Positions 1 to 63,052 of a DNA stretch of 64,000 nt are shown here, piece by piece; positions within the stretch are counted from its first letter, which is position 1; every line of letters begins with the position of its first letter. The position numbers were made by a program, and so were the translations under genes. Below the pieces are notes generated by a model. That model had not been told where the DNA came from. It made no database searches and worked only from the letters and a program-made list of their open reading frames with translations. The stretch spans positions 15,414,651-15,478,650 of the forward strand of contig CM120647.1 in the NCBI GenBank assembly GCA_051362555.1. Reading direction: 5' to 3'. The stretch comes from Lingula anatina (taxonomy: Eukaryota > Animalia > Brachiopoda).

Positions 1-366
1 AAGTGTAGCACGTGCTTCGTGCAGCTGCTGTGGTAACGCGTGTAGCAGTGACCATGGGGCTTGCAGTTGCAATGGCTGCAGCTGTTCTGCAGTTGATCAC
101 CCAAGAAAAAAGGTGTTGTGACCAGATTGTTCATAGCAGTATTTTCACAAATACATATTTAAACCAGCTACTTGTTACACAAAAAATGTTGATTATTAGT
201 AAATTCTGTAAGTCAATTTGGTGATATTGCTGTGAGAAATTATGAGAGTGAATTAATGGCTTATAAAAACACCACCACAGAAAACTTTTTAATAGCAAAT
301 ACAGTTTGTCCAAAGTTATGAGTTTAGAGACCGAAGCAAAAACGAAATGAACGGCCTTTTAAATCC

Positions 367-402
<36 letters not shown>

Positions 403-1036
403 TGAGGGGGGGGGGAAGGGACGGGTTGGTGGAAGGAGAAATAGGTTGAACATACTCCGATAGTCAAATGTGGTGTTTATTTCCATTCACTTTTGTGATT
501 TTATTTATGGCAAGCTATAAAATGTGCACACAAATTATTTTAATAATCTAAAAAAAATGACAACCGTGTTGCAAATGATCAGTTTGAGACCATTCCCAAA
601 GATTATCGTACTAACTTTGGATTGATCTATTTCCAAGGAGGTTCTCAATAAATTGCTATCAACTTAAGCGGCTTAGATGTTTCGCATGCCCACTGAAGCT
701 GTTAGAGGAGAATAAAATATCGTTTAGCGGCTTTAGTAGGCGTGTCAGAGCCGTTTAAGCTAAAAGCAATTTAGTGAGAAAACCCTTGGAGATGGGTCGA
801 TCCAGTGAGATTGATCTAGGCATGGGAACCCTGCCTTAAAATACCATGGTTCATTATTTAACAGTACTATGTTTATGTTTTTTCCCTGTTTTCAGAGGGC
901 CCCCTTCTCCAGCGTAAGCATGACCAGTTGAACATACGGAAGAAAACAGGAAACTCGTCACACAGCTAATTGTGCAGCTCCTGCATTTGGACATTTTTGT
1001 GAATTTTGATTTCAACAATAAGTGGTCACAATAAAG
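1..1036 (+). CDS. Cys-rich secreted peptide gene, copy 0 (5' end outside the window)
   Basis: Frame from nt 2 reads SVARASCSCCGNACSSDHGACSCNGCSCSAVDHPRKKVL* (TGA 119-121), with the 8-Cys pattern of the other copies. An exon-3-like segment follows the acceptor ttttcag at 896, and AATAAA is at ~1030. Confidence 0.75.
588..832. mobile_element. MITE-like repeat in intron 2 of copy 0
   Basis: Imperfect terminal inverted repeats (cattccca...gatcta / gatctag...tgggaac). Homologous to 39477-39730 and related to 5196-5420. Absent at this position in other copies. Confidence 0.6.
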
Positions 1037-2360
1037 ATTGTAGTAAATACGCCGTATTTACTGCATTATCAAACTCTAATTTTACTACCTTTGTCGTTGT
1101 TGGGAATCGTTTGAATGCTAGATACGTATATTAAACCAATAGGCAATGCAAATCAGAGGCTCTATAATTTATATCATAAACATGGATGGAAAAATAGTCT
1201 GATTTAGTTTGCTTTATTAGAATGGGATACATTAGCTTCAGTTATAGTATTTTTTCAATTAAATTAAGGAAAAATATTGTACACAGAAAACTCGCCAATG
1301 CATTTCGAGTTCCAAAATGTTTCCTGCACTATGATTTCTTTTGCATTATTTGTCAAATTCCTCGTGTACAAATACTGACTACAGTTATATTCCTTGCATT
1401 TTAACCACTTCTTTAATGTGATGTCCAAATACAAATTAAATACTATTCACCCCAGTGCCTCGTGATTAAAGACTAAACAGAAAAAGTGAAAATATGTCAA
1501 AATAACTTTTTTTGAGAAATTCAGCTTAATTTATTTAGAAAAATTCTACTTTGTTGCTATAACACTTCCAAAAAAGGAAAAGTTGCAAAATTTCAGGCTG
1601 TAGCCATCTGGACATTGGCCGTAGTGGCCAATCAAGGTCATCACGCACGCGCCACCGATGGCGCACTTTTTACGGCATTCATTGGTCAGCTGCGTAATGC
1701 ACTATTTTCCACCGAAACCACTTCTACAGCTGCGGCAAAAATAACAAAGTATGATGAACAGTTTTTATATAGGTGCTATTAGATATCACCTGGAATTCTG
1801 ACAAAAATAGAATGATACTAGTAAAAAATAAACAAAGCAGAGAGCATATATAGTAGTCTGATTCTTTTTATATACATTACTTATTTCCACCTGTGTTCTA
1901 GCTTCTGCATTATATTTGACAAACTGACTAACGTACCTACAGACTGGTTCATCATCGTGAAAGACGCAGGTGCTTCCATTCTTACATTGAAAGTAACGGT
2001 CTACCCCTCACCATGGATATCTCTTCTTAAACTTCTCATCTTATTCAACATGAAACATGAAACCGTAAATTAAAAGAGCAGAACTTTAATAAATAAATGA
2101 ATAAAAATAAATAAATAATTACGGCTATTGCATATTATGTTAAAAAATAATACGTTGTTGAAAATGAAATGTCAAGACATGAAGAAAAATACTAGTAAAA
2201 AAGATAAGTTCTTGCAGTCAAACACTGACACAGAGTTTGCAGATACTTCTCATGTTTTTTTTCACAATCTTTCACTTGGCAAGACTGGTAGCATTTGAAT
2301 CTGCCACCATAAAGTCCTGCTCCAGGCTCATGTTTTCGCATTAGGCTGAAGAAGTGGCCT

Positions 2361-4360: not shown

Positions 4361-4740
4361 AGATTTCCCTTACCAAATAAACATTTTAGAATTTAAATTA
4401 AAATAATGTAACAATGAAAATTAAATTAAATTCTGCCTATCATTTGTATGTTGTAAACAGGATTTTTACCACGACACAAAAGGGTAATGTATGCAAATTT
4501 TTTTAGGTTAGGAACTGAAAGAAGGAGAAAAAGAAAAACAAAAAAGAGAGAGAGCGCGCCCTGCTTTTAGACGTCGCTTTGAGAAATGATAATGATTCTC
4601 ATGCGTAACACCGTGTATAAGTGATTAAGGAAAGTTTGAAACAGAAAATACCTTGCTGGGGCCATATTTCATGATAATGTTATTCTGTGTTTCCTTGCTG
4701 AAGACTGATAGCGATTTGTTTGCACAGAAACGTATATATA
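4361..4740 (+). promoter_or_regulatory. Promoter of copy A
   Basis: TATATATA at 4733-4740 (TATAAATA in the paralogs), ~80 nt before the ATG. kB-like AGATTTCCC at 4361, plus a conserved GATA-containing module. Confidence 0.6.
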
Positions 4741-4811
4741 CCGGCTTGGGTTGCAAATCTCATCGTAGGGAACAGATCCAGTCTTCTGCTACGACAACTT
4801 TCATTGGAACA

Positions 4812-5933
4812 ATGAAGTCTTGCGTTCTTCTTGTGCTTTTGGTGCTCTTTGCCACTCTTGTCATAGAAGGTGAGAGACACAACGTATTTATATTGATTTA
4901 AAGCGTAAAGACGGACGCAAATAAAAGTGATACATCAGATCTGAGACCGTAATCTAGGCAGACATTATCTCCGCTAGGGGGGAATTTAATTAGAAGTGTT
5001 ACATTAGTATGTCGTAACTTTACCAAAAGAGGTCGTGATCAATATCTCACCCAATAAGATAGACTAAAAATGAAAAATAGTTAATGTATAAATAACAATA
5101 TTCTACTTAATAAAGTTACAGTGTTCAGTAATTCAAAATTTGCAAATAGGCAGTTGTGAGTGCTTACTAACAGTGGTATTTTGTTTCCTATTAAAGGGTG
5201 CCTTCCCAGATATTTAAATCGATCCAGAGATTTAGATTTAGATCGACCTTACTCCCTGGGGGTTCACGCTAAATTGCAGTCAGCCGAGCGCACACCATAG
5301 TTAATTACCCCCTTACAGCTTTTAGTAGGCGGGACAGACGCCTAAGCCGGCTAATCTGACAGTAATCTAGTGAGACTCTCCACAGGGATAGATCGATTTA
5401 AAATCTATGGGAATGGGGTCAAAGACACTCAGTGAAACTAATAGTTGTGTATTAATTTGCATCTAATATATACACAAAACCATTTTAGTCTCTTCTGAAA
5501 GGGGTGTCTTTTCTTTGTAGGTCATTCATATAAATAAGCGAAAACAATAATATAGCTTATTTGTCACAACTGAGGAACATCAGAAAGAAATTGAATGAAA
5601 TCGAGGCCAGGAAATTCTTCTTCGAGTTCAGAAAGGTCATATACGGTGCCACGCATTACTGGCACCACTCCTAAGCAAAACTGGAAGGAGCTCAACTTTT
5701 AAGTTCCACTCTGTTGCTCTCCTTCATTAACATCTGAATACCTAGGGACTTTAGTAACATCGTTTATATTTTCCATTTTTTATTTTGATATAGAAACAGC
5801 CGGGCAATTGGGAGCTGCGAGAGCTCCAACGCGTGCTTCGTGCACCTGCTGTAATCGTAACTCGTGTAGCACCGACAATGGATATTGCTACTGCAGCGGC
5901 TGCACCTGTGTTGCAGTCGATTACCGAAGATAA
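4812..5933 (+). CDS. Cys-rich secreted peptide, copy A (65 aa)
   Basis: Exon 1 4812-4869 (G|GTGAGA), exon 2 5794-5933 (tatag|). Protein MKSCVLLVLLVLFATLVIE-ETAGQLGAARAPTRASCTCCNRNSCSTDNGYCYCSGCTCVAVDYRR*. Exon-3-like segment at 6506, AATAAA at 6639. Confidence 0.88.
5196..5420. mobile_element. MITE in intron 1 of copy A
   Basis: Inverted ends ttcccaga..tttaaatcgatc / gatcgatttaaa..tgggaa. Absent from intron 1 of copy B (empty site ~11495). Confidence 0.65.
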
Positions 5934-6124
5934 AAGGTGTGATCACATTCTTCATGGCAATATTTTCACAACTAAATATTCTGACCAGCTACTTGTTTTA
6001 CATAAATGCTGTTTATTGTGATAATCTGAGACTGCTAAAACCGAGTAGTAGATTCCGCAATCAGATTGGTGCAGTTGTTGTGATATATTATAAGAATGGC
6101 TTAACACAAAGGCTACAGACACCA

Positions 6125-6125
<1 letters not shown>

Positions 6126-6187
<62 letters not shown>

Positions 6188-6270
6188 CCAAAACGTTTGT
6201 CCAAAGGCATTAGTGTAATGACCAAAACAAAGAGAGAGAGAGAGAGGCAAATGTTCTCTTTAAGTTCTTT

Positions 6271-6302: not shown

Positions 6303-6304
<2 letters not shown>

Positions 6305-6909
6305 AAGGAATATGAGAAGGCGGAAGAGAGAGCCAGGTTGTGTGTATGTATGTCATATACGGCACTTATTTCCATTCATTTACATGTTATTATCCAATGG
6401 AAACTAAATGATGTGCATTATATATATTGATGTCGTGCTGTAAATGGACAGTTTAATGCAACAGTTATTTATTTTACAGTGTATAATAAAAATATTCTTT
6501 TTCAGAATAGCCTCCTGTTGAGAGAAACATGACCAGTTATGGAAGAAACCATGAAACTAGTCACTCAGCTAAATGTAACGCATTTACTACGTATTTGGAT
6601 ATTTTTTGTGAATTTTGAGTTTAACAATAAGTGGTTCTAATAAAGATTGTAGTAAATACACTGTATTTACTGCATTATGAAAGCTCTAATTTTACTACCT
6701 TTGTTTTTTGCTGGAAATCGTTTGAATGCTTAATACGTATATTAAGCAAATGGGCCATGCAGTACTAAAAACTAGAGGCTCTTTCATTTATTTCATTAAC
6801 AAAAATGAAAAAGTAAACTTATCAAGTTCGCTTCATTAAAACGGAGTGCTTTAATTTCAGTTATAGTAAGGGTGGGGGAATGTTGTGCACAGGTTAGTCA
6901 TATCAAGTA

Positions 6910-8821: not shown

Positions 8822-11118
8822 ATTCAACGGCAGTTCCTAAGTCATAAACTACTGTATGCAGTTTGCTCTAATTCAGAAAATCCGAAAGAAATACACGTAG
8901 CACCTTTTCAACAAGAAGTATTTTAACAACAGTATTCAATCTGAGAAAAAAGCCAGCACATGTGCTGGTAATTATAGCTTATATTAATAGCAATATACTT
9001 AAAGCAGAATAGTGATATAGGCCTGCACAGGTATTTCGTAGGAATATAAGGTGTGCACATATGCCATTTCCGATGGGCCAGCCAGAAACACTGCGTAGAA
9101 AAAAGCATGACATCCCCCGTTGCTGTATATGTCATACTGGTAATAAGTTGATGTCTTAGCCTAGTATATGTAATACATACATAATTACTACGATCAGTTA
9201 ACAAAAGAGCCGCCACTTTGCCGTATTGCCCACAACCCTAAGAATCGTTGGCACCTTTGTGCATGTAACAGCTATAACGTGAACATTAAGCAACATCTAA
9301 AATAATCTTGCTGTGAGACGTTTCCATGTGTTTCAAAATAAGTGTCTTTACAGCACCCTGTATGTAATGCTATATAAGCACATCATGCTTAAAATGATCA
9401 TTGGCCTTTTGCACGACGCTTGGAAACTGATTTAGGAAGCACAATAAACGTAATGCCTTATCCTACATATTAGAAAAAATAATATGACTGAGAATTTTAA
9501 AACATTTCCATAAATCCCAGATTTGTTTTATATATTCTGTGAATGGAATGAGGAAGCATGAATATTTATAAGTTGGAAACGGGTTCATAAATTATGGAGT
9601 TGTCACGCTGGTTATCGATTTAAGGCATATCTGCTGAAATTTCCGCCGGAGGTGATCTTGGGCTTTATAATTGTCTAACATGTATTTTGATGACATTAAT
9701 TTAATTAAAATTGTCTTTGAAATTTAGGAACTTTATCGCCTACATACCACCTCAGATGTGGACAATGCATTGAGGACAGTATTCCTAGCGGGCGTTAATT
9801 AACTAGTTAGCCTATAAACAACCCAATTTGACTAATTCCCAATGAATTTGCCATTTTGTTTATCATGCACGCGGTAGATTCATTTGCTAGAAAGTTACAA
9901 CCTCCTCACCAATTAACAGCAGATGTTAAAGAATGAATCGTAGAAAAATTATGATTGTGTTTAAGTGACGGTTTTACTACAACGGCAACAAAAAGGGACG
10001 TTTTTTTTGTTGATATTATTTCGTGTGCATTAAAGACAGAAGGAAGCATGTACACTTGTAGAGAAAAGAAATGCAGATATAAATGTGCTCGTAGATTGCA
10101 TTAAACAGAGAAAACAGAGAGGACTTTGAACAAGCAGGCAATACTTGTCATTAGAAGACGCTTTAACAAATGATAATGATTTTATTGCGTTGAACTGTGT
10201 AATAATGATAAAGGGAATGTTTGAAACAGAAGATACCTTTCTGGGACCATATCTCATGTCGCCGTTATTCTGTATGTTTCCTTGTTGAAGAATGATAAAA
10301 ATTTCATATACACAAATTGCATGTATGCAATCATAAAGGGGGGGGGGGTAGCGAACAGATACATAACAAACTACATATTTGCTTGGTAAAAGAGAGAATA
10401 CAAAAGGAAAACTGGAGTGAATTATCTTTAATTGAAAGTTTTAGATATATTTTACCAGCCACAAAATACTCCATAAGACAAATGAATGTCTTTTGCAGCG
10501 ATATTTGGTGTGTGCAGAATACAGAACCAAAGGGTAGTTTTTCATCATTTAAGGTAAATGTACAACATTTTCCAGATACTGAACGAAAGATGTGAATACG
10601 ACATGTCTATTGCAAGTGAATCTTTGTCGTGCTTTATCTTAAACGTAGCAGTACGATATTAACGTGTCAGATTCCCCTTACCAAACCAAATAAACGTTTT
10701 AGATTTTGAATTTAAATGATGTAAGAATGGGAATCAAAATAAGTTTTGGCATTCATTTATTTGTTAAAAAATTCTGATTTTTACCACGACAAAAAAGGGT
10801 AATGTTTGCAAAATTGTTAGGTTAGGAACTTAAAGAAGGAGAAAAAGAAAACAAACGAGAGTGCGCTTTAGACGTCGCTTTGACAAATGATAATTATATT
10901 ATTTTATTGCATTACAACGTGTATAAATGTTTAAGGAAAAATTTGGAACAGAAAATACCTTGCTGGGACCATATTTCATGACAATGTTATTCTGTGTTTC
11001 CTTGCTGAAGATTGATAGTGATTTGCTTGCACAGAAACGTATAAATAGCGGCTTGGGTTGCAAATCTCATCATAGAGAACTGATCCAGTCTCCTGCTAGG
11101 ACAACTTCCATTGGAACA

Positions 11119-12035
11119 ATGAAGTCTTGCGCTCTTCTTGTGCTGTTGGTGCTCTTTGCCACTGTTGTCATAGAAGGTGAGAGACACAAAGTATTTATAA
11201 TAACTTAAAGCGTAAAGTAGGACGCAAAGAAAAAAGATACGTCAGTACTTAGACTGTAATCTAGGCAGACATTATCTTTGCGAGGGGGAAATGTAATTTT
11301 AAATCTTACAATAGTATGTCGTAACTTGACCAAAAAGAGGTCGTGATCAATATCACACCCAATAAGATAAACTAAAAATGTAAAATAGTAAATGTATAAA
11401 TAAGAACATCCTACTTAATAAAGTTACAGTGTTCAGTAATTCAAAATTAGGCAGTTGTGAGTGCTTACTAGCAGTGGTGTTTTGTATCCTTTTAAAAACA
11501 CGCAGTGAAACTAATAGTTGTGTATTAATTTGCATCTAATATATATGCAAAACCATTTTAGTCTCTTCTATAAGGGGTGTCTTTTCTTTGTAGGTCACTC
11601 ATAAAAATAAGCGAAAACAATAATATAGATAATTTGTCACTACTGAGAATTTACTAGTAAGAAACTGAATAGAATTGAGACCAGGAAATTCTTTTCGGAG
11701 TTTATGAAAGTCATAGACCGTGCCACGCATTACTGGCACCATTCCTAAGCAATATTGGAAGGAACACAAATTTTAAGTTCCACTCTGCTACTTTCCTTCA
11801 TTAACATCTGAATACCTTTCAGATGTTAATGAAGGACTTTCAGTAACATCGTTCAGTAACATCATTTATATTTTCCATTTTTTATTTTGATATAGACACA
11901 GCCGGGCAAGGGGGAGCTCCGGGAGCTGCATTGCGTGCTTCGTGCAGTTGCTGTGGTGTTAACACGTGTAGCACCGACCGTGGGAGATGCTACTGCAGAG
12001 GCTGCACCTGTGTTGCAATCGATTACCCAAGATAA
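11119..12035 (+). CDS. Cys-rich secreted peptide, copy B (65 aa)
   Basis: TATAAA 11040; exon 1 11119-11176; exon 2 11896-12035. Protein MKSCALLVLLVLFATVVIE-DTAGQGGAPGAALRASCSCCGVNTCSTDRGRCYCRGCTCVAIDYPR*. Exon-3-like segment at 12576, AATAAA at 12704. Confidence 0.9.
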
Positions 12036-13993
12036 AAGGTGTGTGATCACATTCTTCATGGCAATATTTTCACAACTAAATGTTCTGACCAGCTACTTAA
12101 TTTACGTAAATGTTGTTTATTGTGTTAATATGAGACTAATAAAACCGAGTAGTAGATTCCACAATCAGATTGGTGCTGTTATTGTGATATATTATAAGAA
12201 TGGCTTAAAACAATGGTTATAGGCACCACAAAAAACTCTTTTTCATATCAAATACCGATTGTGCAAAGACATTAGTTTAATGACCAAAACAAAGAGAGAG
12301 AGAGAGAGAGAGAGAGGCATGGTGTGCATGTGTGTTTTCGAGTATGTGTGTGAGAGAGAATATGAGGAGGAGGAAGAAAGAGACAGGTTGTGCGTATGTA
12401 TGTCATATACTCCGGTTTTCATATACGGCATTTATTTCCATTTATTTTCGTGTTATTATCCAATGGAAGCTAAATGATGTGCATTGTATATATGGGCGTC
12501 GTGCTGTAAATGGTCAGTTTAATGCAACAGTTCTTTATTTTACAGTGTATACTTACAATATTTTTATGTTTTCAGAATAGCCTCCCGTCGAGAGGAAACA
12601 TGACCAGTTACGGAAGAAAACACGAAACTAGTCACTCAGCTAAATGTAAAGCTGGTGTATCTGGACATTTTTGTGAATTTTGAGTTCAGCAATAAGTGGT
12701 CATAATAAAGATTGTAGTAAATACGGTGTATCTACTGCATTGTCAAAGTCCCAATTTCACCACCTTTGTCGTTGTTGGAAATCGTTTGAATGCTTAATAC
12801 GTATATTAAACCAATGGGTCATGGAGCACTAAAATTAGAGGCACTTTCATTTATTTCATTAGTATAAATGAAAAAGCTAACTTATCAAGTTCGTTCCATT
12901 AAAGTGGAATGTTATAGTAATAGTAACGGTGGGCCAATTTTGTGCACAGGTTAGTCATGTCAAGTACCAATAAATAAATAGCCTTTGATACACTTTCTTT
13001 ATGGAATTCTAATAGCCAATAAGGGCTAGAACCAAAAGATGTTGAGTATTTTTAATCAACATTTTTAAACAATTTGTGTTACTGAAATTAAGGAGAAATC
13101 TTGCTACACAGAAAACCTGCCAAAGCAGGTTTTCTGCACTATTTGTCATTTGTCAAATTCCTGGCACATGTAATATTCATGTAGATTTTAACTTCTTTTT
13201 TAATGTGATGCCCAAACACAAATTTAACACAATTCACCCCATTGTGTCGTAATAAAAGACTAAACAGAAAAAGGGAAAGTTTGTCAAAAATACTTCATTT
13301 TTTTTAGAAACTAATCCCAATTTATAAAAAAAAATGCTACGTTGCAATAACACATCGAAAAAAACTTTTTACGGCATTCATTGGTCAGCTGCATCATGTA
13401 CTGTTTTCTGCCGAAACCACTTTAACATCTGTCGCAAAAATGGAACAGATTCTATAAAAGTGCTATTAGATATCACCTGGAATTCTGACAAAAATAGAAT
13501 GACACATTTAAAAAAGTAATGAAGCGGCGAGCATACATAGTCTCATGGTTTTCTTTCACATATTGTTCATCTTAACCTATGACGGCATGTAACATTGATA
13601 AAATAGCTCTTTTAAGACATAATACATTTTGGGGAATATAAGATAAGGAATAAATTGGTATCATGCTTTAATTAACATTTCTTTAGTAAATGTTACTAAA
13701 TCAATCTACATGCCTTCTCTTTAAACATTAACATCTTTTAAAGTATCATCCTCAGATGTATTATACAAATTACAGGTAATGAAACACAACTATATCTCAT
13801 TTGCCACACCTGTAATTTATCCTTAAGAGAATGCAGATATTTTCAAAACTTCTCGACAAAATAGGAATGGCCAGACTTTTTCCTATAATCTGCACAAAAC
13901 CTAGATAATTAAAATAACACACTAACAAATGGCAGCTCGCCTTTAAATTAACATGTCTTTAGTAGATGTTACTAAATCAACCTACATGCCTTT

Positions 13994-20060: not shown

Positions 20061-20408
20061 TGACTTGACTGGCTTAGCATTTCTAGCGGGCTTTAATGAA
20101 CTGTTTTAGGGCACAATTATTAGTTTCGCTGTGTGTTTCAAAAGGAAGCGAAATACCATTGTAAGTATAAGCACTCACAACTGCCTATCTGCAAATTTTG
20201 AATTACTTTACATTTTTAGTATATCTTATTGAGTGTGATTTCGATCAAGACCTTTTTTGTCAAGTTACGACATACTAATGTAACATTAAAATTATATTTG
20301 CCCCTAGCGGAGATAATATCTGCCTAGATTACGGTCTCAGTACTGACGTATCTCTTTTCTTTGCGTCCGTTACGCTTTAAGTCATTATAAATACTTTGTG
20401 ACTCTCAC

Positions 20409-20466
20409 CTTCTATGACAACAGTGGCAAAGAGTACTATGAGCACAAGAAGAACGCAAGACTTCAC
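20409..20466 (-). pseudogene. Inverted signal-peptide exon 1 with ATG changed to GTG
   Basis: Reads (V)KSCVLLVLIVLFATVVIE, then G|GTGAGA, on the minus strand. Confidence 0.85.
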
Positions 20467-20669
20467 TGTTCTAGGGCCACTGGACGTTGCCCTAGCAGGA
20501 GACTGCATCAGTTCTCTAACATTTCTAATTAACATTGTAACATTTCTAATTAAATTTCGCACTAGCTGAGATGACGTTTGACTAAATTATGGTTTGAGTA
20601 CAGACGTATCTCTTTTCTTTGCGTCAGTACTTACGCTTCAAGTCATTATGAATATTTTGTGTCTCTTAC

Positions 20670-20726
20670 CTTCTATGACACAGTGGTAAAGAGCTCTAAG
20701 AGCGAAAGAAGAGCGCAAGACTTCAT
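20670..20726 (-). pseudogene. Second inverted exon 1, frameshifted
   Basis: ATG intact but the exon is 57 nt (1-nt deletion), giving MKSCALLSLLELFTTVS*. TATAAATA lies upstream on the minus strand at ~20800. Confidence 0.8.
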
Positions 20727-22173
20727 TGTTCCAATGGAAGTTGTCCTAGCAGGAGACTTGATCAGTTCTCTACGATGAGACTTGCAACCTAAGCCGCTAT
20801 TTATACGTTTCTGTGCAAGTTAATCACTATCAATCTTCAGCAAGAAAACACAGAATAATAATGTCATGAAATATGGTCCCAACAAGGTATTTTCTGTTTC
20901 AAACTCTTCCTTAATCATTTATACACGGTGTTACGTAAGAAAACCATTATCATTTGTCAAAGCGACGTCTAAAAGCAGAAGCGCTCTCTCATTTTGTTTT
21001 CTTTTTCTCCTTTTTTAGTTCCTAACCTAAACAATTTTGCAAACATTACCCTTTTCCTGTCGTAATAAAAATGATAGGCAAAACTTAATATAATTTTCAT
21101 TGTTGCATTATTTTAATTCAAATTCTAAAAAAGTTTATTTTGTAAGGGAAATCTTATCCTCTAATATCTATACATAAGATATGCATAAGATACAAGCACG
21201 CAAAAGATGCACTTGCAGTAGACCCGTCGTATTCACATCTTTCGTACAAGATCTGAAAAAATGCTGTGAATTTATCTTAAACTGAATAAATAAAAACAAT
21301 AATTCAATTATTGCTATTTTTAATATTAATTTTATTTTACTCGAGGCTTATATTTGTTGAATTATAAATTTCACTATATTTTCTTCTTATATTATTGGAA
21401 ACTGACCTCTGGATTTTATTGAGAAAATCAGACCGTTCAGCAATGTATTATCTTTAAATCGCAATTGAGAAGTTTCACAATTTTTGTTTTAATGATGAAA
21501 AACTTCCCCTTGATTCTGTATTCTGCACTCGCCAAACACCGCTGCAAAAGACATTCCTTTATCTTATGGACTATTCTGTGGCTGGTAAAAAATACTCCCG
21601 GCCCTAATGATTGCATAAATACAATACGTAAATGTATTAAAATTTTATCAATCTTCAACAAGGACACATACAGAATGAGATATGGTCCCAGCAAGGTATT
21701 TTCTGTTTCAAACATTTCCTTAATCATTATTACGTAACTCAACGCAATAAAACAATAAACATTTGTTAAAGTGTCTTCTAATGACAAGTATTACCTGCTT
21801 GTTCAAAATCCTTCCCGTTTAATGCAATCTACCAGCACATTTATTTCTGCACTTATTTTTTTTCTACAAGTACATGCTTCCTTTATTCTTTAATACACAC
21901 AGAATAATATCAAAAATTAAACCGAGCCTTTTTGCCGTTGAAATAAAACCGTCACTTACACACTACGATTCATTCTTAAACATCTGCTGTCGATTGGTGA
22001 GGAGGATGTTACCTTTTAGCAAATGAATTTACCACGTATGTGATAAAACAAAATGACAAATTCAATGGAAATTAGTCAATTTGTTTAGTTTAATTTGCAT
22101 TTTTATAATTTATCTTGACACTGTCAAATTAGAAAATATCTTAAAAAAAAAGAAAATATCTTTAAAAAAATAA

Positions 22174-23348: not shown

Positions 23349-23504
23349 ACACAGTAGGGCAAAGTGTACACAGCCGGGCAAAGTGTAGCGCGTGCTTCGT
23401 GCGAATGCTGTGGTCGCACGTGTAGCAGCGACCATGGGAGTTGCAGGTGCGGCGGAAGGCCTCCCCACTGCTACTGCCTTGCAGTTGATCACACAACAGC
23501 GTAA
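23349..23504 (+). pseudogene. Orphan exon 2, copy C
   Basis: Core AGQSVARASCECCGRTCSSDHGSCRCGGRPPHCYCLAVDHTTA* is intact. A 19-nt duplication follows the acceptor, its own exon 1 is inverted, and exon 3 is deleted. Confidence 0.8.
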
Positions 23505-40542: not shown

Positions 40543-40808
40543 CATAAAAATGTTGATAAATGTGCTTATCTGAGACTGATTAAACCGATTAGTAAATTCC
40601 ACAAGTCAATTTGGTGATATTGTTGTTAGAGATTATGAGAAGGAATTAATGGCTCATTAAAACAAAGTGTACTGACTCCACAGAAAAGTTTTTTTCATAA
40701 CAGATTAAGTTTGCCCAAATGCATCAGTTTCAAGACTGAAAAAAAAAAAAAAAAACAGATAAACGTTTTTTAGTTTTTTTCGACAAAGTGTGTGTGTGTG
40801 TGTGTGTG

Positions 40809-40844
<36 letters not shown>

Positions 40845-40896
40845 AGAGAGAGAGAGAGAGAGAGAGAGATGAGAGTGAGGGACAGAGAAAGCCATG

Positions 40897-40931
<35 letters not shown>

Positions 40932-41569
40932 AGATTATATTATCTAATGCAACCATATTATGTTCATTCAAGTAAGTTAATAAAACAAATTCATATTGAG
41001 TTGTATATGGTTAGTTAAATGCAACAGCGTATTATTTTACAGTTTTTTTTGTTTTCAGAATAGCCACCCGTCGAGAGGAACCATGACCAGTTGAACATAC
41101 GGAAGAAAACAGGAAACTAGTCACTCAGCTAAATGTAAAGCTGCTGTATTTGGACATTTTTTTGGACTTTTTTGTGAATTTTAAGTTCAACAATAAGTGG
41201 TCACAATAAAGGTTGTAGTAAATGCGCTGTATTTACTGCATCGTCAAAGCTCAGGATTTATTTTCTTTATCGTTGTTAGAAATCGTTTGAATGCTTAGTA
41301 CGTTTATTACACCGATGGGCAATGCACTAAAATTTAGAATCTCTAAAATTAATCTCATAAACATGAATGAAAAAGTATACCTATCAAGTTCGCTTAATTG
41401 AAATCAAAAGCACTAACTTAAGTTATAGTAATGATTGGGTAATTTTGCGCACAGGTTAGTCATATAAATAAATAAATAAATAAATAAATAAATACGGTTA
41501 TTACATATTTTACCAAGAAATAATGCTAGGTGATAACTCTTTGAAAATGACATTACAAGAAACGAAATA

Positions 41570-44859: not shown

Positions 44860-45802
44860 TGGTGGACTGCTGGTACACTTTGGACAAGCAGGTAATATCT
44901 GTCGGTAGAAGACGCTTTAACAAATGGTCATTGCTTTATTACGTTGAGTTGTGTAATAATGATAAAGGAAATGTTTGAAACAAAATATCTTGTTGGGACA
45001 ATATCTCATGTCGACGTTATTCTGTATATTTCCTTGTTGAAGACTGATAATTTTGCTCGATAACAGAGAGAATTCAAATGGAAAACTGGAGTGAATTATC
45101 TAAATTTTGAAAGTTTTAGGTATTTTTTACAAATTCTGTGAATATTCTCGCTTTTCTCACGATCTGGTTTTCTCAATATCCAGAGGTAGATTTTCAATAA
45201 GATGAGAAATAAGATATAGTGAAAATTAAATTCCAAAATTATAAATTATGAGTAAAATAAAATGAAAGCTAAAAACAAATTAAAATAATCTTAAATTAGT
45301 TTAAGGTAAATGCACAGTTCTTTGAAGATGTTGTACGAAAGATGTGAATACGTCTGGTCTATTACAAATGCATCTTTGCTTGCCTTTATCTTATTAGTTC
45401 GATATCAGATAGTAAGATTTAATTAAAATAATGAAACTATGCAAATTAAATTAAGTTGAGGTTATCACTTGTATGTAAAACAAATTGGAATTTTACCACG
45501 ACAAAAAGGGTAATGGTGACAAAATTGTTTAGGTTGAAAAATGAGAGAGCGCTTCTGCTTTTAGACGTTGCTTTGACAAATGATAATGATTTTGTTGCAT
45601 AACACCGTGTACAGTCGAGGAAAAGTTGGAAACAGAATATACCTTCCTGGGTCCATATTTCATGACAATTTTATTCTGTGTTTCCTTAATGAAGATTGAT
45701 AGGGATTTGCTTGCACTGAAACGTATAAATAGCGGCTTGGGTTGCAAATCTCATCGTAGAGAACTGATCCAGTCTCCTGCTACGACAACTTCCATTGGAA
45801 AA

Positions 45803-46761
45803 ATGAAGTCGTGCGCTCTTCTTGTGCTCTTGCATGGTGCTCTTTGTTGCTGTTGTCATAGAAGTGAGAGACACAAAGTATTTAATTAAAAGTATTTAAT
45901 AATGACTTGAAGTGTAAAATCTGAAGCGAAGAAAAGGGGTACGTCAGAACTGAGATCGTAATCTAGGCAGACGTTATCTCCGCTAGGGGGGAATTTAATC
46001 TGAAATGTTACATTAGTATGTCGTAATTTGACCAAAAGAGGTTGTGATCAAAATCACACCCAATAAGATATACTAAAAATGTAAAATTGTTTAAACATAA
46101 ATTACAGCATCCAACTAAATAAAGTGCAGTGTTCAGTAATTCAAAATTTGCAGATAGACGTGAGTGCTTACTGACAGTGGTATTTTGCTTCCCTTTGAAA
46201 CACAAAGTGAAACGTATAATTCTGCCTTAATTTGTATTTCCATAAACTATCTTGACACTGTCAAGATAGAAAATATCTCAATATATATGCAAATTCATTA
46301 TAGTATCTTCTATGAGAAATGTCTGTTCTTTGTATTTCACTCTCAAAAATAAGCTAAAACAGCCAAAAAGATTATTTGTCACTACCGACAAATACCGGTA
46401 AGAAATTGAATGGAATGGAGACCAGAAAAATGTATTTGGAGTTCACAAGGGCATGGATAGTGCCACGCATTACCCACTACTAAGCAAAGTTGGAAAGAAC
46501 GCACACTTTAAGTTCCACTATGTTGCTTTCCTTCATTAACATTTGAATTGAGAAATTACGCGTAAAATAAATGCACATGGACTTTCAGTAACACCTTTAT
46601 ATTTTGCATTTTTTATTTTGATATAAGACACAGCCGGACAAAGTATAGCGCGTGCTACGTGCTCCTGCTGTGGACAAACATGTCATACCGACCATGGGAC
46701 TTGCTACTGCGTCGGCAAGCCCCCAAATTGCCGCTGTGGTGCCAGCGATTACACAAAATAA
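45803..46761 (+). CDS. Cys-rich peptide, copy G (64 aa, altered signal peptide)
   Basis: TATAAA 45724; exon 1 45803-45863 (61 nt, A|GTGAGA); exon 2 46628-46761. Protein MKSCALLVLLHGALCCCCHR-NTAGQSIARATCSCCGQTCHTDHGTCYCVGKPPNCRCGASDYTK*. Exon-3-like segment at 47335. Confidence 0.7.
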
Positions 46762-47130
46762 ATGGTGCTGTGATCACATTGTTCATGCCAGTATTTTCAC
46801 TAATATATATTCAGACCAGCTACTTTTTTTAACATAAATATGTTGATAACTGTGCTTATCTGAGACTGATAAAACCGATTATTAAATTCCACAAGTCAAT
46901 TTGGTGATATTGTTGTTAGAGATTATGAGAAGGAATTAATGGCTCATTTAAACAAAGTGTACTGACTCCACAGAAAAGTTTTTCTTTTCATAACAAATTA
47001 AGTTTGCCTAAATGCATTAGTTTAAAGACCGAAACAGAAAACCGAGATAAACGTTTCTTGAATTTTTTTTTTCAAGAAAGAAAGAGAGAGAGGAGAGAAA
47101 ATGAGAGTGAGCTGAGACAGAGGAAGCCAT

Positions 47131-47201
<71 letters not shown>

Positions 47202-48355
47202 ATTATCTAAGGCAACCACATTATGTTCATTCAAGTAACTTAGTAGAACAAATGCATATTGAATTATATATGGTCATATTAATGCAACGGTTTGTTATTT
47301 TACAGTTTAAAATTAATTTTTTTTTTGTTTTCAGGATAGCCGCCCGTCCAAAGTAAGCATGACCAGTTGGACATACGGAAGAAAACAGGAAATTAGTCAC
47401 TCAGCTAAATGTACAGCTGCTGTATTTGGACTTTTTTGTGAATTTTGAGTTCAACAATAAATGGTCATAATAAAGAATGTAGTAAATACGCTGTATTTAC
47501 TGCATTGTCAAAGCTCTAATTTTACTGCCTTTGTCGTTGTTGGAAATCGTTTGAATGCTTGATATGTGTATTAAGCCAATGTGTCATTAGCATTAATATT
47601 AGAGGCTCTATCATTTATTTCGTAAAAATGGATGAAAAACTAAATTCATCAAGTTCGCTTTCTTTAAACGGAATGCATATATATTACCTTCAGATGTAGT
47701 TATGGTGGGGCAATTTTGTGCATATAACAGGTTAGTCATATCAAATTTTTTTGTGGCCATTGTTATGATATATTATAAAATGTATTTATGTATCATTAAA
47801 ACAATGGCTACAGCTGACTCTGCAGAAAAAAAATAAAAACATATTTTTTCATAACAATTACCGTTTGCCGAAAGGCATAAGTTTAATGACCAAAGCAAAA
47901 ATAGCGACACAAATGTTTTTTTTTTAAGAGAGAGAGAGAGAGAGAGAGCCATGGTGTGCATGCGTGCGTGTGTTCGAGTGATAAATAAATAATTACCCTA
48001 CGATACACTTACTTAATGAAATTATAATCGCCAATATTTGCTAGGACCAAAAGATGTGAAGTATTTTCGATGACATTTTTTAAAACAATTTGTGTTACTG
48101 AAATAAGGGAGATATCTTGCTTATATAAGTGACATAAGATATCACCTGGAATTCTGACAAAACTGTAATGATAATATTTAAAAAAATATGAAGCATATTT
48201 ATCATATTTAGTAGTCTGATTCTTCATATATACGTGCATATTTATTTTTATCTGTGTTCTTGCTTATGCATTAAATTTGATAAACTGATTCACATACCAA
48301 CAGACTGGTTTATCATCGTCGTAAAAGACGCAGGGGCTTCCATTGTTACATTGTA

Positions 48356-52069: not shown

Positions 52070-53797
52070 TTTTAAGGCACAATTATTAGTTTCGCTGTGT
52101 GTTTCAAAAGGAAGCGAAATACTATTGTAAGTATAAGCACTCACAACTGCCTATCTGCAAATTTTGAATTACTTTACATTTTTAGTATATATTATTGAGT
52201 GTGATTTCGATCACGACCTTTTTTGTCAAGTTACGACATACTAATGTAACATTAAAATTAAATTTGCCCCTAGCGGAGATAATATCTACCTAGATTACGG
52301 TCTCAGTACTGACGTATCTCTTGTCTTTGCGTCCGTTACGCTTTAAGTCATTATAAATACTTTGAGAATCTCACCTTCTATGACAACAGTGGCAAAGAGT
52401 ACTATGAGCACAAGAAGAACGCAAGACTTCACTGTTCCAATGGACGTTGTCCTAGCAGGAGACTCGATCAGTTCTCTACGATGAGATTTGCAGCCCAAGC
52501 CGCTATTTATACGTTTCTGTGCAAGCAAATCCCTATCAATCTTCAGCAAGGAAACACAGAATAATAAGGTCATGAAATATGGTCCCAGCAAGGTATTTTT
52601 TGTTTCAGACTTTTCCTTAATCATTTATACACGGTGTTACGTACGAAAACCATTATCATTTTTCAAAGCGATGTCTAAAAGCAGAAGCGCTCTCTAATTT
52701 TGCTTTCTTTTCCCCTTTTTTAGTTCCTAACCTAAACAATTTTGCAAACATTACCCCTTTCCTGTCGTGATACAAATGATAGGCAAAACTTAATATAATT
52801 TTCATTGTTGCATTATTTTAATTCAAATTCTGAAAAAAGTTTATTTTGTAAGGGAAATCTTACTCTCTAATATCTATACATAAGATATGCATAAAATACA
52901 AGCACGCAAAAGATGCACTTGCAGTAGACCCGTCGTATTCACATCTTTCGTACAACATCTGAAAAAATGCTGTGAATTTATCTTAAACTGAATAAATAAA
53001 AACAATTATTCAATTATTGCTATTTTTAAAGATTAATTTTATTTTACTCGCGGCTTATATTTGTTGAATTATAAATTTCACTATATTTTCTTCTTATATT
53101 ATTGGAAACTGACCTCTGGACGTTATTGAGAAAATCAGACCGTCCAGCAATATTTTTTCTTTAAATCGCCATTGAGAAGTTTCACAACTCTTATTTTAAG
53201 GATGAAAAACTTCCCCTTGATTCTGTATTCTGCACTCGCCAAACACCGCTGCAAAAGACATTCCTTTATTATATGGACTATTTTGTGGCTGGTAAAAAAT
53301 ACTCCCGCCCCTAATGATTGCATAAATACAATACGTAAATGTATTAAAATTTTATCAATCTTCAACAAGGACACATACAGAATGAGATATGGTCCCAGCA
53401 AGGTATTTTCTGTTTCCAACATTTCCTTAATCATTATTACGTAACTCGACGTAATAAAACAATTATCATTTGTTAAAGCGATCCTAATGACAAGTATTAC
53501 CTGCTTGTTCAAAGTCCGCCCTGTTTAATGCAATCTACCAGCACATTTATTTCTGCACTTCTTTTTTTCCACAAGTATACATGCTTCCTTTATTCTTTAA
53601 TACACATAGAATAATATCAAAAATTAAACCGAGCCTTTTTGCCGTTGAAATAAAATCGTCACTTACACACAATGATTCATTCTTAAACACCTGCTGTTGA
53701 TTGGTGAGGAGGATGTTACCTTTTAGCAAATGAATTTACCACGTATATGATAAACAAAATGACAAATTCAATGAAAATTAGTCAATTTGTTTAGTTT
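52070..53797 (-). other. Inversion carrying the promoter and exon 1 of copy I
   Basis: Same breakpoints as 20107-22091. Contains exon 1 at 52375-52432 (minus strand, GTG in place of ATG) and TATAAATA at ~52505-52512. Confidence 0.85.
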
Positions 53798-53811
53798 AAT
53801 TTGCATTAAAA

Positions 53812-54208: not shown

Positions 54209-54345
54209 ACACGGCCGGGCAAAGTGTAGCGCGTGCTTCGTGCGAATGCTGTGGTCGCACGTGTAGCAGCGACCATGGGAGTTGCAGGTGCGGCGGAAGG
54301 CCACCCCACTGCTACTGCCTTGCAGTTGATCACACCACAGCGTAA
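54209..54345 (+). pseudogene. Orphan exon 2, copy I (intact frame and splice sites)
   Basis: tatag|AC ACG GCC... reads DTAGQSVARASCECCGRTCSSDHGSCRCGGRPPHCYCLAVDHTTA*. Donor GC|GTAAGG; D-type exon 3 at 55117. Confidence 0.8.
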
Positions 54346-56105
54346 GGGGTGTTGTGATGAGATTGTTCATAGCAGTGTTTTCACAAATACATTAAGGCCA
54401 GATACAAGTTACACATAAAAATGTTGATTATTGTCCAAACCATAGACTAGTAAATTCTACAAATCAATTTGGTAATATTGTTGTGAGAAATCATGAGAAT
54501 GTATTAATGGCTTGTAAAAACACCACCAAAGAAAACTTTATAATAGAAAATACAGTTTGCCCAAAGTTATTAGTTGAGAGACCGGAAAAAATAATGAGAT
54601 GGACGGTCTTGTAAAATCTATTAAAGAGAGAGATAAAAGGTGGGGGAGGGAAGATGAGGTGGAAGGAGAACCAGGTTGTACGTGTGTATGTCATTTACTC
54701 TGTCATATTTGGCGTCTATTTCGAAACCTCCATTCTTGACTTCAACAACATTTCTGCGCTTAAGTCATAAAATTATGTATGTAATTTTCTCTAATTGGGG
54801 GGAAACCGAAAGATATACAGGTAGCCCCAAGATGGACGTTCTTGTAAATTCTATTAAAGAGAGAGAGAGAGAGAGAGGAGGGAGGGGGATGGAAGGAGAA
54901 TTAGAGAACCAGGCTGTACGTTTGTTTGCCACATACTCTGATTGTAATATGTGGCGTTTATTTCCATTCAATTTTGTGATAAAGTCTAATTCAAGCTATA
55001 TAATGTGCGTTCAAATAAGTAAATAGAAAAAAAATGAACATCGTGCTGTAAATGATCAGTTAAATACAATGGTTAATTATTTAATAGTTTATAATAACAA
55101 TGTTTTTTGTTCACAGATGACCCTTCCATCGAGGGTAAGCATGACCAGTTGAAACTAAAGAAGAAAACAGAAAACTAGTCACTCAGCTCAATGTAATCTT
55201 ATAGTTGATGTAAAACTGCTGTACCTGGATATTTTTGTGAATTTTGAGTTCAACAGTTAGTGGTCATAACAAAGATTGAGTAAATGCACCTGTATATTAG
55301 GTTTTCTTAATTCAATAAAATGATTTTACAGAGCTTTACATAGCACATCCACTGAAATAGTACAACCCATCCAACTTCTACCATATGTACATAAATGTGC
55401 AAAGAAAATTACTTTCCTTCAACGCCATATCCTTGCACAAAAGTAAGAAAAAGCTGTAAATACACATCTTTATTAGAAAGTATAAAATACAAATTTATAA
55501 TAAGAACAAAAAGTTGCTTTTCAGTTTACACGTATTTTAATCCTGTAGCTAAACAGGTTATAAGACGAGTACTGCCACTAGTCAGAAGAAATCTTTCCAG
55601 TTAATGGTAGCATTAGTATATAATATAGTAATATCAAATCAGTAGAGATACAAATGCTGACAAAATAAAATTGAGTGAGTGGAAGATGGCCTGTCCCCTG
55701 TCCTCTAATTTGTGACCCACATCTAGGAAAGTAAACTTGTATATCGTCCTATAGATGTAGATAAATTTATCTGTGATTTTCCAAATACAAGTAAGGATTA
55801 CCCTGTAATCTCCCACAGGGGGTCTGTGGTATTTCCAGGATATAATATATGTTGCATACTGGTATTGTCTTTTTCCCCTCTTGTCGGTAATGGTCACTGC
55901 CTTGCCTTTGTATTTTCTCTAAATTAAACTGGAAATGACATGCGCAGGGTAAATGTTGATAGAATATACATCACTTATTGGTTGGTTTAGACCGTTAGTT
56001 TTTACTAGTACTTGAAGGAGACATTGTAAAGAAAAATATTATGCTGATAGAAACAACTGGTGGAAAAAACTGCATACACACCGTGATGGCTGGATACTAA
56101 GATCT

Positions 56106-59503: not shown

Positions 59504-59592
<89 letters not shown>

Positions 59593-59998
59593 TGTTTATT
59601 ACCAGATTTACAAACTGTTTGTTATTGCTGTTTCAACACCACATGTGACCGCATGGCCTAGTGGTTAGGGTGTCTGCCTCTGGGGTTCAAGGCCGTCCGG
59701 GGACACAACAATCTGAAATGAACGTTACTTGCTCTTTCTCCCCTTGGCGATGTTGTTGTTTTTGTTCATGATGTGCCTAGGAGTAAAAAAATCCTTAAAA
59801 TGGGGTCATGGTGACTCTTTTGTAGAGATAGATCAAGGGATGAAGTGATGTGTGAATGGAGTTAATTGTGACCCTCCTTTGGGGTCTGGGCTGGCATTTC
59901 TTCATCGGAGTCAACTTGACTCCAATTGGGAGTTATTTTAGGCACCACTGCTGGACTCCAAGTTTGGAGTCACTTGGACTCCGATTTTATTCTCAGTG
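59016..59998. mobile_element. CACTG-ended element, duplicate of 32804-33660
   Basis: Same termini, with one extra subterminal repeat block. Confidence 0.7.
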
Positions 59999-60785
59999 GC
60001 TGAGTACATATACAGTTGGTGACGAATCAAACCACAGAGTATCATTTATATTTTGAAAGTTATAGACACATATAACCAGCCAGAAAATTAGCGATAGGCC
60101 AAATGCTTGCCTTTTTAATCGATGTTTCTTGTGTGTAAAATACAGCGTCCTGTGCATTCAATATTCAAATGCAGTGAATCTTCTAGATTCCTGCAAATCG
60201 GTCTTATTTTTGCAATGAAGGCCAGAGGTTGACTTGTAATAAAATAAGAAATGAAATATAATTAATGAAAATTCTGATTCATTTAAATAAAAATAAGTAA
60301 TACATTAAATATGATAAATTTAAAGTTAAAAAATAAAAAAAAAAATATTTTTTGACCATAATATCATTTATATCAGTTGAAGATATTATGAAGGCTTAAA
60401 GGTAAACCTTACGCGTGCAGTAGCTAACTGTTAACGAAATTAACAGATGTGTTTGCAAATTTTCGAATTGTTTATTTTGTACGTGGCAATTAGATACTAG
60501 AGAGTAAGATTGCTTTCACCAAATAAGACATTTTGAGAAATGATAATGATTTTATTGCATAACACTGCGTATTAATGATTCAGAAAAAAGTCTGAAACAG
60601 AAAACATCTTGCTGGCACCATATTTCAGGGCAATCTGTTTCTGTTTCCTTGCTGAGGGTAAACAGATATTTCCTTGTACAGAATTGTATAAATAGCGGCT
60701 TGGGATGCGTAAGATAGCAAGTCTCTTAGAAGAGAACAAATTCCTGAGATTTCATTCTCCTGCTAGGACAACTTCCATTGGAACA

Positions 60786-62183
60786 ATGAAGTCGTGCGCT
60801 CTTCTTGTGCTTTTGGTGCTCTTTGCCGCTGTTGTCATAGAAGGTGAGAAACAAAATATTTATAATGACTTAAAGCGTAAGTAATGACGAAAAGAAAAGA
60901 GATGTCAGAAGTGAGACAGTACTCTAGACAGGCAGTATCTCAGCTCGGGCGAGATTTATTTAGAAATGTTAACAAACTATGACATGAGTGCTTACTAACA
61001 GTGGTATTTTGCTTTCTTTTGAAATACACAGTGAAACTAATAATTGTGCCTGAATTTGCATTTCCACAAATTATCTTGAGTCAAGTTAGAAAATATCTGA
61101 ATACATATATAAAACCATTTTAGTCTGTTCTATGAGGGGTGTCTGTTCTTTGAAGATCACTCTGAAGAAGAAGCTAAAACAATCAAAAATTATTTGTCAC
61201 TACCAAAGTATACCAGTAAGAAAATTATTGAATTTAATGGAGACCAAGAAATGTACATGGAGTTCAGAAAGGGCATAGATGGTGACACACATAACTGACA
61301 CCATTCCTAAGTAAAATTGGAAAGAACACATCTTTTAAGTTCCAATTTGTTATTTTTTTATTAACAATTGAATTTAGAAACTACGCGCAAAATAAATGCT
61401 CACGGGATTTCAGTAACGGATTTATATTTACCATTTTTTCATTTTGATATAGACACATCCGGGCAAGCTGTAGCGTATGCCACGTGCACCTGCTGTGGTC
61501 ACAGGTGTAGCAGCGACCATGGGAGATGCGAGTGCGGCGGAATTCCACCCAACTGCTACTGTGCTGCAGTTGATTACACAACAAGGTAAAAGGTTTTGCA
61601 ATCAGATTGTTCATAGCAGTATTTTCACAAATACATATTTAGACCAGCTGCTTGTTACACATAAAAAAATGTTGATTATTGTTCGAACCTTAGACTTCTA
61701 GCTAATTAGTAAATTCTGCAAGTCAATTTTTATGACATTGTTGTGAGAAACCATGAGAGTGACTTTATGGCTAGTAAAAACACCACAACAGAACACTATT
61801 TAATAACAAATACAGTTTGCCCAAAAAACCGAAAGACCGAAAAAATAACGAGATGGACGGTCTTGTAAATTCTATGAAGGAGAGAGAGAGAGAGAGGTGG
61901 GGGAGGGAGGGGAAGGTGGAAAGAGGATTAAAGAACCAGGTTGTACGTGTGTATGTCTTTTACTTTGATTGTCGTATGTAGTGTTTATTTCCATTCACTT
62001 TTGTCATATAATCTAATGCAAGCTATATAATGTGCGTTCAAATAAGTAAATAGAAAAAAAATAAATATCGTATTGTAAATGTTCAGTTAAATACAATGGT
62101 TCATTATTTAAAAGTTTATAATAACAGTTAAGAACAGTTTACACATATTTTTTGTTTGCAGAAGACCCTTCTTTCGAGGGTAA
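60786..62183 (+). CDS. Cys-rich secreted peptide, copy J (70 aa, 3 coding exons)
   Basis: TATAAA 60687; exons 60786-60843, 61453-61585, 62162-62183. Protein MKSCALLVLLVLFAAVVIE-DTSGQAVAYATCTCCGHRCSSDHGRCECGGIPPNCYCAAVDYTTR-RPFFRG*. AATAAA at ~62298. Confidence 0.9.
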
Positions 62184-63052
62184 GCATGGCCAGTTGGACA
62201 TAAAGAAGAAAACAGGAAACTAGTCACTCAGCTAAATGTAAAGCTGCTGTATTTGGACATTTTTTTGTGAATTTTGAGTTCAACAATAAGTGGCCATAAT
62301 AAAGATTGTAGTAAATACGTTGTATTTACTGCATTATCAAAACTCTAATTTTACTGCTTTTGTCGTTGTTGAAAATAGTTTAAATGCTTGATACGTATAT
62401 TAAATCAATGGGCAATGCACCACTGAAAATTAGAGGCTATATCATTTATTTCATAAGCATGAATGAAAAAGTAAACTTATCAAGATCTCTTTATTAGAAC
62501 GGAATGCTTTAACCTCTGTTATAGTTATTTGTGTTACTTAAAAATATTGCTGCACCGGAAAAATCTTGATACACAGAAAACTAGCCAAAGCATTTCGAGT
62601 ACCAAAATGTTTCCAGCACTATATATATATTAAGATTCTTTTGCATTATTCGTCATATTCCTCGTATAAAAATACTGACTACAGTAACATTTGTTGCATT
62701 TTAACTATTTCTTGAATGTGATGTCCAAATACAAATTTAACATTATTACCCAAGTGCCTCGTGATTAAAGTCTAAACAGAAAAAGCGAAAGTATGTCAAA
62801 ATCATTTCATGTTTTTTGTCGAAATTCAGCACAATTTATTAAGAAACAAATCTACTTTGTTGCAATAACACATCAGTTAATGAAAAGTTGCAAAGTTTTT
62901 GGCTGTAGCCAACAGGGCATTCGCCATATTGGTCAATCAAGGTCATCACGCACGCGCCACCGATGACACACTTTTTACGGCATTCATTGGTCAGCTGTGT
63001 AATGCACTATTTTCCACCGCAACCACTTCTACAGCTGCGGCAAAAATTAAAA

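Follow-up and report, generated by a model that had tools for sequence, protein, structure and literature searches.

A tandem array of hypervariable eight-cysteine peptide genes, predicted to encode secreted products, in the brachiopod Lingula anatina

Contig CM120647.1 of the Lingula anatina assembly GCA_051362555.1 carries, on a stretch of 64,000 nucleotides (positions 15,414,651 to 15,478,650; hereafter the window, numbered from its first letter), a tandem array of three-exon genes whose second exon encodes a short eight-cysteine core of highly variable sequence. Here, I show that the family is expressed and its transcripts are spliced, that residues between its fixed cysteines diverge faster than the flanking introns, and that it matches no named family in the searches made. 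An earlier note, written from the letters alone, had proposed a spliced and hypervariable family evolving by birth and death and lacking a named relative, and the RNA reads, the searches and the divergence counts bear this out. The genes are predicted to encode a lineage-restricted family of secreted host-defence peptides, a reading to which roughly even chances are given.

Six-frame scanning of the window finds ten copies of the cysteine-rich exon 2, all on the + strand and named A to J from left to right. The framework C-x-CC-x3/4-C-x6-C-x-C-x2/6-C-x-C is matched by nine of them and by nothing in 100 shuffles of the window; the ten copies counted in the earlier note are all present, while the cysteines that it took to be invariant are so in nine, E having a stop at the fifth cysteine codon. 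Seven of the nine carry CxxxC and the other two, B and C, Cx4C; all nine keep six residues between CxxxC and the cysteine of the GxC motif, as well as 4 or 8 residues between G-x-C5 and C7. Beyond the cysteines, the eight copies aligned (D and E excluded) all agree in two glycines, one of them that of GxC, in an alanine preceding the core and in an Ala-x-Asp behind it. Of the ten, B, C, F, G and J lie intact inside the window, A is cut by its edge and gene death has damaged the other four (D, E, H and I).

Ahead of exon 2, each intact copy carries a TATA box, a coding exon of 58 nt that specifies a hydrophobic signal, and a GT-AG intron in phase 1. Signal exon, phase-1 intron and TATA box had been ascribed to the array as a whole; they hold for these five, whereas the signal exon is damaged in E and H, and promoter and signal exon are inverted in D and I. 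Nine copies, D being the exception, have a third exon 540-780 nt further downstream, a conserved block with pyrimidine tract, AG and AATAAA, and the two-exon gene ending in AATAAA that had been proposed is therefore right as to the signal and one exon short, the AATAAA sitting in exon 3.

Four of nine Lingula RNA runs (X1, X4, X6 and X7) were mapped to positions 1-7600 of the window at 85% likeness, using 6-25% of each run; direct read evidence covers this interval alone, and copies C to J, with the exon-2 donors of F, G and J, lie outside it. Spliced transcripts, on which the earlier gene models depended, are found there. In run X7 transcripts start at 4775, 36 nt past a TATA box, and splice joints depart exactly at the predicted donor 4869, leading, among the matches listed, into six exon-2 starts with 110, 50, 38, 34, 17 and 11 reads. 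Compared by eye, the start with 38 reads is exactly that of F/J and the one with 110 reads is F/J with one synonymous base, three others are B/C-type variants and the last has no near counterpart in the window. Five of the six starts (again among the matches listed) are absent from the window, and alleles or copy number therefore differ between animals. Exon 3 is reached by a second joint, from 5934/5936, for which X7 has 44 and 34 reads and X6 has 2; 33 of these reads match the exon-3 start of copy C exactly. At positions 910 and 913 of the window, all 16 of 16 X7 reads have F/J- or E-type exon-3 letters. Almost every exon-1 read has the letters of a paralogue at 4825 and 4857, so that these reads show expression of the family and not of copy B itself.

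Exon-1 depth at position 4825 reaches 508 reads in X7, as against 2 in X6 and 0 in both X1 and X4, at similar read numbers. This on/off pattern may be partly technical, because library type differs between the runs. At about 590-840, 5200-5420 and 7420-7590 RNA depth is very high in each of the four runs, with loose ends at either side; these places are short interspersed repeats that many other transcripts contain, and such depth is no sign of local expression.

The signal exon is nearly constant, with 0-3 amino-acid-changing differences in 57 nt between intact copies. The core behaves otherwise. In the three closest independent pairs, nonsynonymous divergence at non-cysteine exon-2 codons (pN; uncorrected counts over few codons) was set against divergence in intron windows chosen by the author from the alignable parts: pN is 0.075 against 0.028 for F/J (Fisher p 0.03), 0.258 against 0.095 for B/C (p 0.0001) and 0.188 against 0.052 for G/H (p 0.0002). 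Non-cysteine change is thus above flanking-intron divergence in all three pairs and about three times faster, while the pooled ratio of pN to its synonymous counterpart pS is 2.1 (p 0.043), mostly carried by B/C. This excess of change between fixed cysteines points to diversifying selection. Conservation of cysteine codons is a feature of conotoxins; a special conservation of this sort was considered for the Lingula genes and rejected, cysteine codons showing 14 differences in 288 pairwise comparisons and other two-fold codons 4 in 104.

An exhaustive HMMER profile search of 1.84 billion representative proteins returned three matches. The first, XP_013403637.1 (P0002; LOC106168921), is an uncharacterized L. 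anatina protein whose first half is identical to copy F and whose second half corresponds to a copy absent from the window; the model runs copy F together with the coding exons and 5' UTR of a second copy. It is either an annotation chimera or a read-through, and indicates that assemblies differ in their copies. The second, P0004, is an L. anatina model of A-like type with one exon-2 residue different, which continues into exon 3 and whose beginning precedes the start site observed in copy B. The third, P0003, a 1200-residue repeat protein, was dropped as a relative, cysteine spacing being the sole match. The claim that open-reading-frame callers would miss the genes is half right, for the annotation contains two imperfect, uncharacterized models.

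The profile, Pfam and PDB searches, which address the earlier question of a named family, gave none, the family members that they returned being the uncharacterized Lingula models: Pfam matched 0 of 8 members at E 10 and a PDB sequence search gave 0 matches. A word-based homology search with an eight-sequence alignment yielded 49 candidates, none at E 10, and one with the precursor part of XP_013403637.1 yielded no candidate; Rfam gave no match, and the Atlas gave no usable match for exon 2 of F, precursor scores being 0.79 or less. None of the matches outside Lingula appears to be a true homologue. A literature search retrieved no paper on the family, nor the accessions in full texts; the survey of Lingula immune genes (Gerdol 2018) lay outside that search. 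The family is probably undescribed, the main risk to its novelty being that this survey may already mention it.

The two halves of XP_013403637.1 are informative on the C-terminal end, as both finish exon 2 at a donor homologous to 35258 of copy F. With that donor, as presumed for F and J, exon 3 reads RPFFRG-stop in F and J and RPFHRG-stop in E, and the Gly-stop ending of F and J would give an amidated tail if the presumed junction is used.

AlphaFold2 models of exon 2 have four strands and no helix both for F (mean pLDDT 72, about 80 in the core) and for C (mean pLDDT 62). The GxC motif lies in a predicted antiparallel hairpin (strands 23-30/33-40 in F and 30-34/37-41 in C), and the x6 loop, with its paired prolines, forms the tip of a predicted disulfide-flanked hairpin in the F model and varies among copies. 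Compared with the Protein Data Bank through Foldseek or VIA-align, neither model gave a significant hit, a weak test for models of 45 residues; because such short models rarely score, a new fold is no more than possible. The charge of the exon-2 products ranges from -4 (F) to +4 (G); six of the eight are cationic (+1 to +4) and J is at -1.

How such genes would work in defence can be put as follows. The tandem three-exon genes would encode peptides predicted to be secreted, each a small four-stranded beta sheet with four disulfides. A signal peptide of about 23 residues would be cut before a glutamine, leaving a product of roughly 40 residues that would undergo oxidation along the secretory pathway. 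The scaffold would be held by the fixed cysteines together with two glycines and a C-terminal aspartate, and exposed loop residues, varying the charge from -4 to +4, would bind changing surface targets of microbes or parasites, whereby duplication would supply variants and old copies would decay. Exon 3 would contribute either the 3' UTR alone or a short tail, in F and J a tail closed by Gly-stop and presumably amidated. Such a charge range would fit specific target recognition better than general membrane lysis. Support for defence, a plausible role, comes from the near-constant signal exon, the diversified core, the gene death, the contrast in expression between runs, the differences in alleles or copies between animals, the hairpin resembling a gamma-core and the cationic majority.

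Several points weigh against this reading. For G/H alone pN equals pS (0.188 each) and for F/J alone the comparison with pS is not significant (p 0.33), B/C being the one pair that is significant by itself. The F/J type is the commonest exon-2 start in X7 (148 of 260 reads, among the matches listed) and, with its charges of -4 and -1, is unlike membrane-lytic peptides. The structural models are of moderate confidence, with pTM 0.38 (F) and 0.35 (C), and no kappa-B-like site is present within 1 kb of any of the six promoters tested. Moreover, MgCRP-I of Mytilus, the closest analogue, has the same evolutionary signature, yet it was inactive in the assays described in the available part of PMC4558851.

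The strongest competing explanation, though an improbable one, is that the peptides are secreted recognition or signalling ligands (for reproduction or self/non-self discrimination, as a gamete-surface or waterborne cue) that diversify together with an endogenous receptor. The same selection signature would be expected of them, and on/off expression between runs and mixed charge would suit them as well; fragments of a rhodopsin-type G-protein-coupled receptor (GPCR) gene at five places of the array could even be taken to hint at a receptor, but these pieces are 5'-truncated, nearly silent relics (depth <2 over the interval mapped) that look like passengers of the duplicated unit.

Less probable still, and set level with each other, are two functions directed at other molecules or other animals. 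Anti-predator or anti-fouling neuroactive peptides, acting on ion channels or receptors of other animals, would share with venom peptides the conserved signal, the hypervariable disulfide core and the possible amidation, and in the Atlas the closest feature clusters are those of a spider toxin and a conotoxin I2 family; the score of 0.79, however, is reached by a third of shuffled proteins, there is no sequence or fold match, and Lingula is a burrowing filter feeder and is not known to have a venom organ. A 10-Cys teretoxin frame likewise begins C-CC-C-C-C, going by the available part of PMC4494067. The toxin alternative of the earlier note gains no support other than from generic architecture, the Atlas score lying below its chance level. 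Small inhibitors of proteases or hydrolases, on the other hand, would use the variable hairpin loop (x2 or x6) as reactive loop, and the paired prolines at the predicted hairpin tip, variable among copies, would be in keeping with this; three copies nevertheless lack the loop, and no inhibitor family or fold is matched.

Metal-binding peptides of the metallothionein kind, or peptides of the shell, pedicle or mucus matrix, are the least credible of the alternatives, for all that eight cysteines fall within some 25 residues and that the CxCC and CxC motifs, along with His, Ser and Gly, resemble those of metallothioneins. The signal peptide leads to an oxidising compartment, Pfam gives no metallothionein match at E 10, MRE-like promoter sites are not above background (5 in 6 kb against 3.5 expected), diversifying selection is unexpected for a chelator, and neither XP_013403637 nor the core motif occurs in the available part of the Lingula shell proteome supplement (PMC13425148), from which small peptides and poor gene models can be missing.

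Returning to host defence, a fuller claim may be framed, namely that this is the first Lingula-specific host-defence family, with an undescribed beta scaffold of four strands and four disulfides, of brachiopod origin, and with copy number and alleles varying between animals. Its C-terminus would alternate between no tail, an unstructured one and an amidated Arg-Pro-Phe-Phe-Arg, through shifts of the exon-2 donor and of the phase in which a shared exon 3 is read. In this complete form the claim is tentative and rather less likely to be right than wrong. Be that as it may, an expressed family under diversifying selection supplies candidate effectors of lingulid immunity that are short enough to be synthesised and opens that question to direct test, and peptide design may gain a new disulfide scaffold from it. 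The degree of surprise is moderate, lineage-restricted hypervariable tandem cysteine-rich peptides being well known in mussels and cone snails.

As for the individual copies, all features are on the + strand unless stated. The window opens within copy A, whose exon 1 and 5' part of exon 2 lie beyond its edge; exon 2 (1..112) is open to a phase-0 donor at 112, where the A-type model P0004 splices into exon 3 (896..1035, to AATAAA), giving in phase 0 an 11-residue tail that matches P0004. Copy B comprises promoter and signal exon at 4733..4869 (TATA 4733, start site 4775, ATG 4812, donor 4869, as in the reads of run X7), exon 2 at 5794..5936, with the signal end, a short spacer, the 8-Cys core (x4 and x2 loops), a stop at 5933 and the donor at 5936, and exon 3 at 6506..6644, a 3' UTR with AATAAA. 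Copy C spans 11040..12709 (TATA 11040, exon-1 coding part 11119-11176, exon 2 11896-12038, exon 3 from 12576). The acidic copy F (34365..35988) has its TATA at 34365, exon 1 at 34464-34521, exon 2 at 35126-35258/35265 and exon 3 from 35847; copy J (60687..62303) follows the same plan, with TATA 60687, exon 1 60786-60843, exon 2 61453-61585/61592 and exon 3 from 62162. Copy G (38998..41210), the most cationic, has exon 1 at 39077-39134, exon 2 at 40346-40475 and exon 3 from 41059, and would be intact if the homologous donor 40475 is used. A read-through C-terminal extension of G was judged unlikely, because that donor, if used, gives a stop.

Damage takes several forms. Copy D has its promoter and exon 1 inverted (20112..22092, - strand), with exon-1 copies at 20670-20726 (frameshifted) and 20409-20466 (GTG start) and the 5' part of intron 1, while its exon 2 (23349..23507) keeps a full cysteine core, is shifted in frame by a 19-nt duplication at the exon start and has no exon 3 downstream. 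In copy I promoter and exon 1 are likewise inverted (52072..53798, - strand; exon 1 52375-52432 with GTG start, and the 5' part of intron 1), with the breakpoints of D; exons 2 and 3 occupy 54209..55319 (exon 2 54209-54348, an E-type exon 3 from 55117). One and the same inversion, with identical junction sequences, is present in D and I and places promoter, exon 1 and early intron 1 opposite exon 2. Pseudogene E (26892..30571) consists of an exon-1 relic without ATG near 26970, an exon-2 relic at 29752-29859 with a stop at Cys5, and exon 3 from 30415. In copy H (45724..47474) a small insertion and a deletion replace the hydrophobic core of the signal exon (45803-45863), the best 11-residue hydropathy being 2.4 against 3.3-3.55; exon 2 (46628-46764) is intact and exon 3 starts at 47335.

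The D-E-F block (19227-37311) recurs as I-J (51208-63725) with 84-97% identity; within I-J a deletion joins I to the E-type exon 3 and an unrelated insert lies near 56170-57716. By sequence alone the I-J block may be a tandem duplication or an uncollapsed second haplotype, the two being indistinguishable here. Exon 1 of D and that of I (20409-20466 and 52375-52432) are identical at 58 of 58 positions, the nearby flank being about 97% identical, and their exons 2 (23370-23504 and 54211-54345) encode the same core protein and differ at 3 of 135 positions, as against 29 of 372 in intron 2 (p 0.02). With coding parts closer than flanks, recent gene conversion would be the plain reading; use of the inverted exon 1 through trans-splicing would be a remote one.

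The single-exon GPCR gene (7tm_1) mentioned above is represented at its five places by 3' halves or relics: pieces at 2313-2783 and 8234-8821, 94% and 91% identical to L. anatina LOC106168901 (the former over 2313-2780), and relics at 37415-37540, 41874-42012 and 63754-63879. They travel with the duplicated unit, and read depth is <2 in the four runs mapped. Two inverted pairs complete the picture: repeats of 513 nt with 92% identity (14028-14520 and 16560-17070), flanking about 2 kb between C and D in the manner of a DNA transposon, and a 696-nt pair of 80% identity (27651-28333 and 28593-29272) located in the first intron of pseudogene E and likely to be a MITE-like or fold-back insertion.

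Among known systems, MgCRP-I has most in common with the Lingula family: as described in the available part of PMC4558851, it is a lineage-restricted multigene family with a conserved pre-region and a hypervariable mature part on fixed cysteines, with a phase-1 intron near the signal end, pseudogenes, positive selection and no assigned function. The same part of that source gives MgCRP-I six cysteines (C-C-CC-C-C), four exons and a dibasic pro-peptide site, and reports no antimicrobial, antifungal, insecticidal or cytotoxic activity. The Lingula family differs in its eight cysteines (C-CC-C-C-C-C-C), its three exons and the lack of a dibasic site ahead of the core, and there is no sequence match between the two.

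The CS-alpha-beta defensins carry CxxxC on an alpha-helix that packs against a beta hairpin, and pair their cysteines C1-C4, C2-C5 and C3-C6. With these, mytilins included, the family shares a signal peptide, CxxxC (in 7/9 copies), GxC, a C-terminal CxC on the last predicted strand and, as in mytilins, eight cysteines; it differs by an N-terminal CxCC, an extra cysteine two residues past GxC and the lack of a Pfam or PDB match. Going by the predicted structure, with four beta strands and no helix, it is no CS-alpha-beta defensin; the likeness drawn in the earlier note finds no support in either AlphaFold2 model, nor in the spacing, CxxxC and the GxC cysteine being 9-10 residues apart in the plant defensins treated in the available part of PMC9820530, as against the six counted in 9/9 Lingula copies. 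The gamma-core pattern given there, GXC-X3-9-C, occurs in 9/9 copies, loose as the pattern is; members of the gamma-core class are cationic and amphiphilic, as would suit the six products at +1 to +4 and not F or J. Beta-hairpin antimicrobial peptides (AMPs) such as protegrin, tachyplesin and gomesin also resemble the family in the predicted C-terminal hairpin with C-x-C on both strands, and gomesin in a possible N-terminal pyroglutamate and C-terminal amide, but these are single hairpins of 11-25 residues with charges of +1 to +8 (PMC13001179, available part), against about 40 residues, four predicted strands and two non-cationic members in Lingula.

In the available part of a lophotrochozoan AMP library (PMC10414684), 4 of 390 entries are from brachiopods, all of them big defensins and none from Lingula, and five CxCC motifs sought in its supplement 1 bring up 8 rows, each of them a mytilin or a big defensin whose cysteine runs are C-terminal. 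Big defensins are, like the family described here, secreted, cysteine-rich and found in brachiopods, but have six cysteines ending in CC and a hydrophobic N-terminal domain, neither of which is present in the latter. Metallothioneins are cytosolic and lack a signal peptide, whereas the Lingula genes have a hydrophobic signal exon and no Pfam match. In conoideans, the eight-cysteine string C-CC-C-C-C-C-C is part of longer frames of 10-14 cysteines in the three papers examined, in part, out of 12 bearing the string. To sum up, the hypervariable cysteine-rich families of mussels and cone snails are of the same working kind as the Lingula family, which its cysteine spacing or its predicted fold sets apart from CS-alpha-beta defensins, MgCRP-I, big defensins and beta-hairpin peptides.

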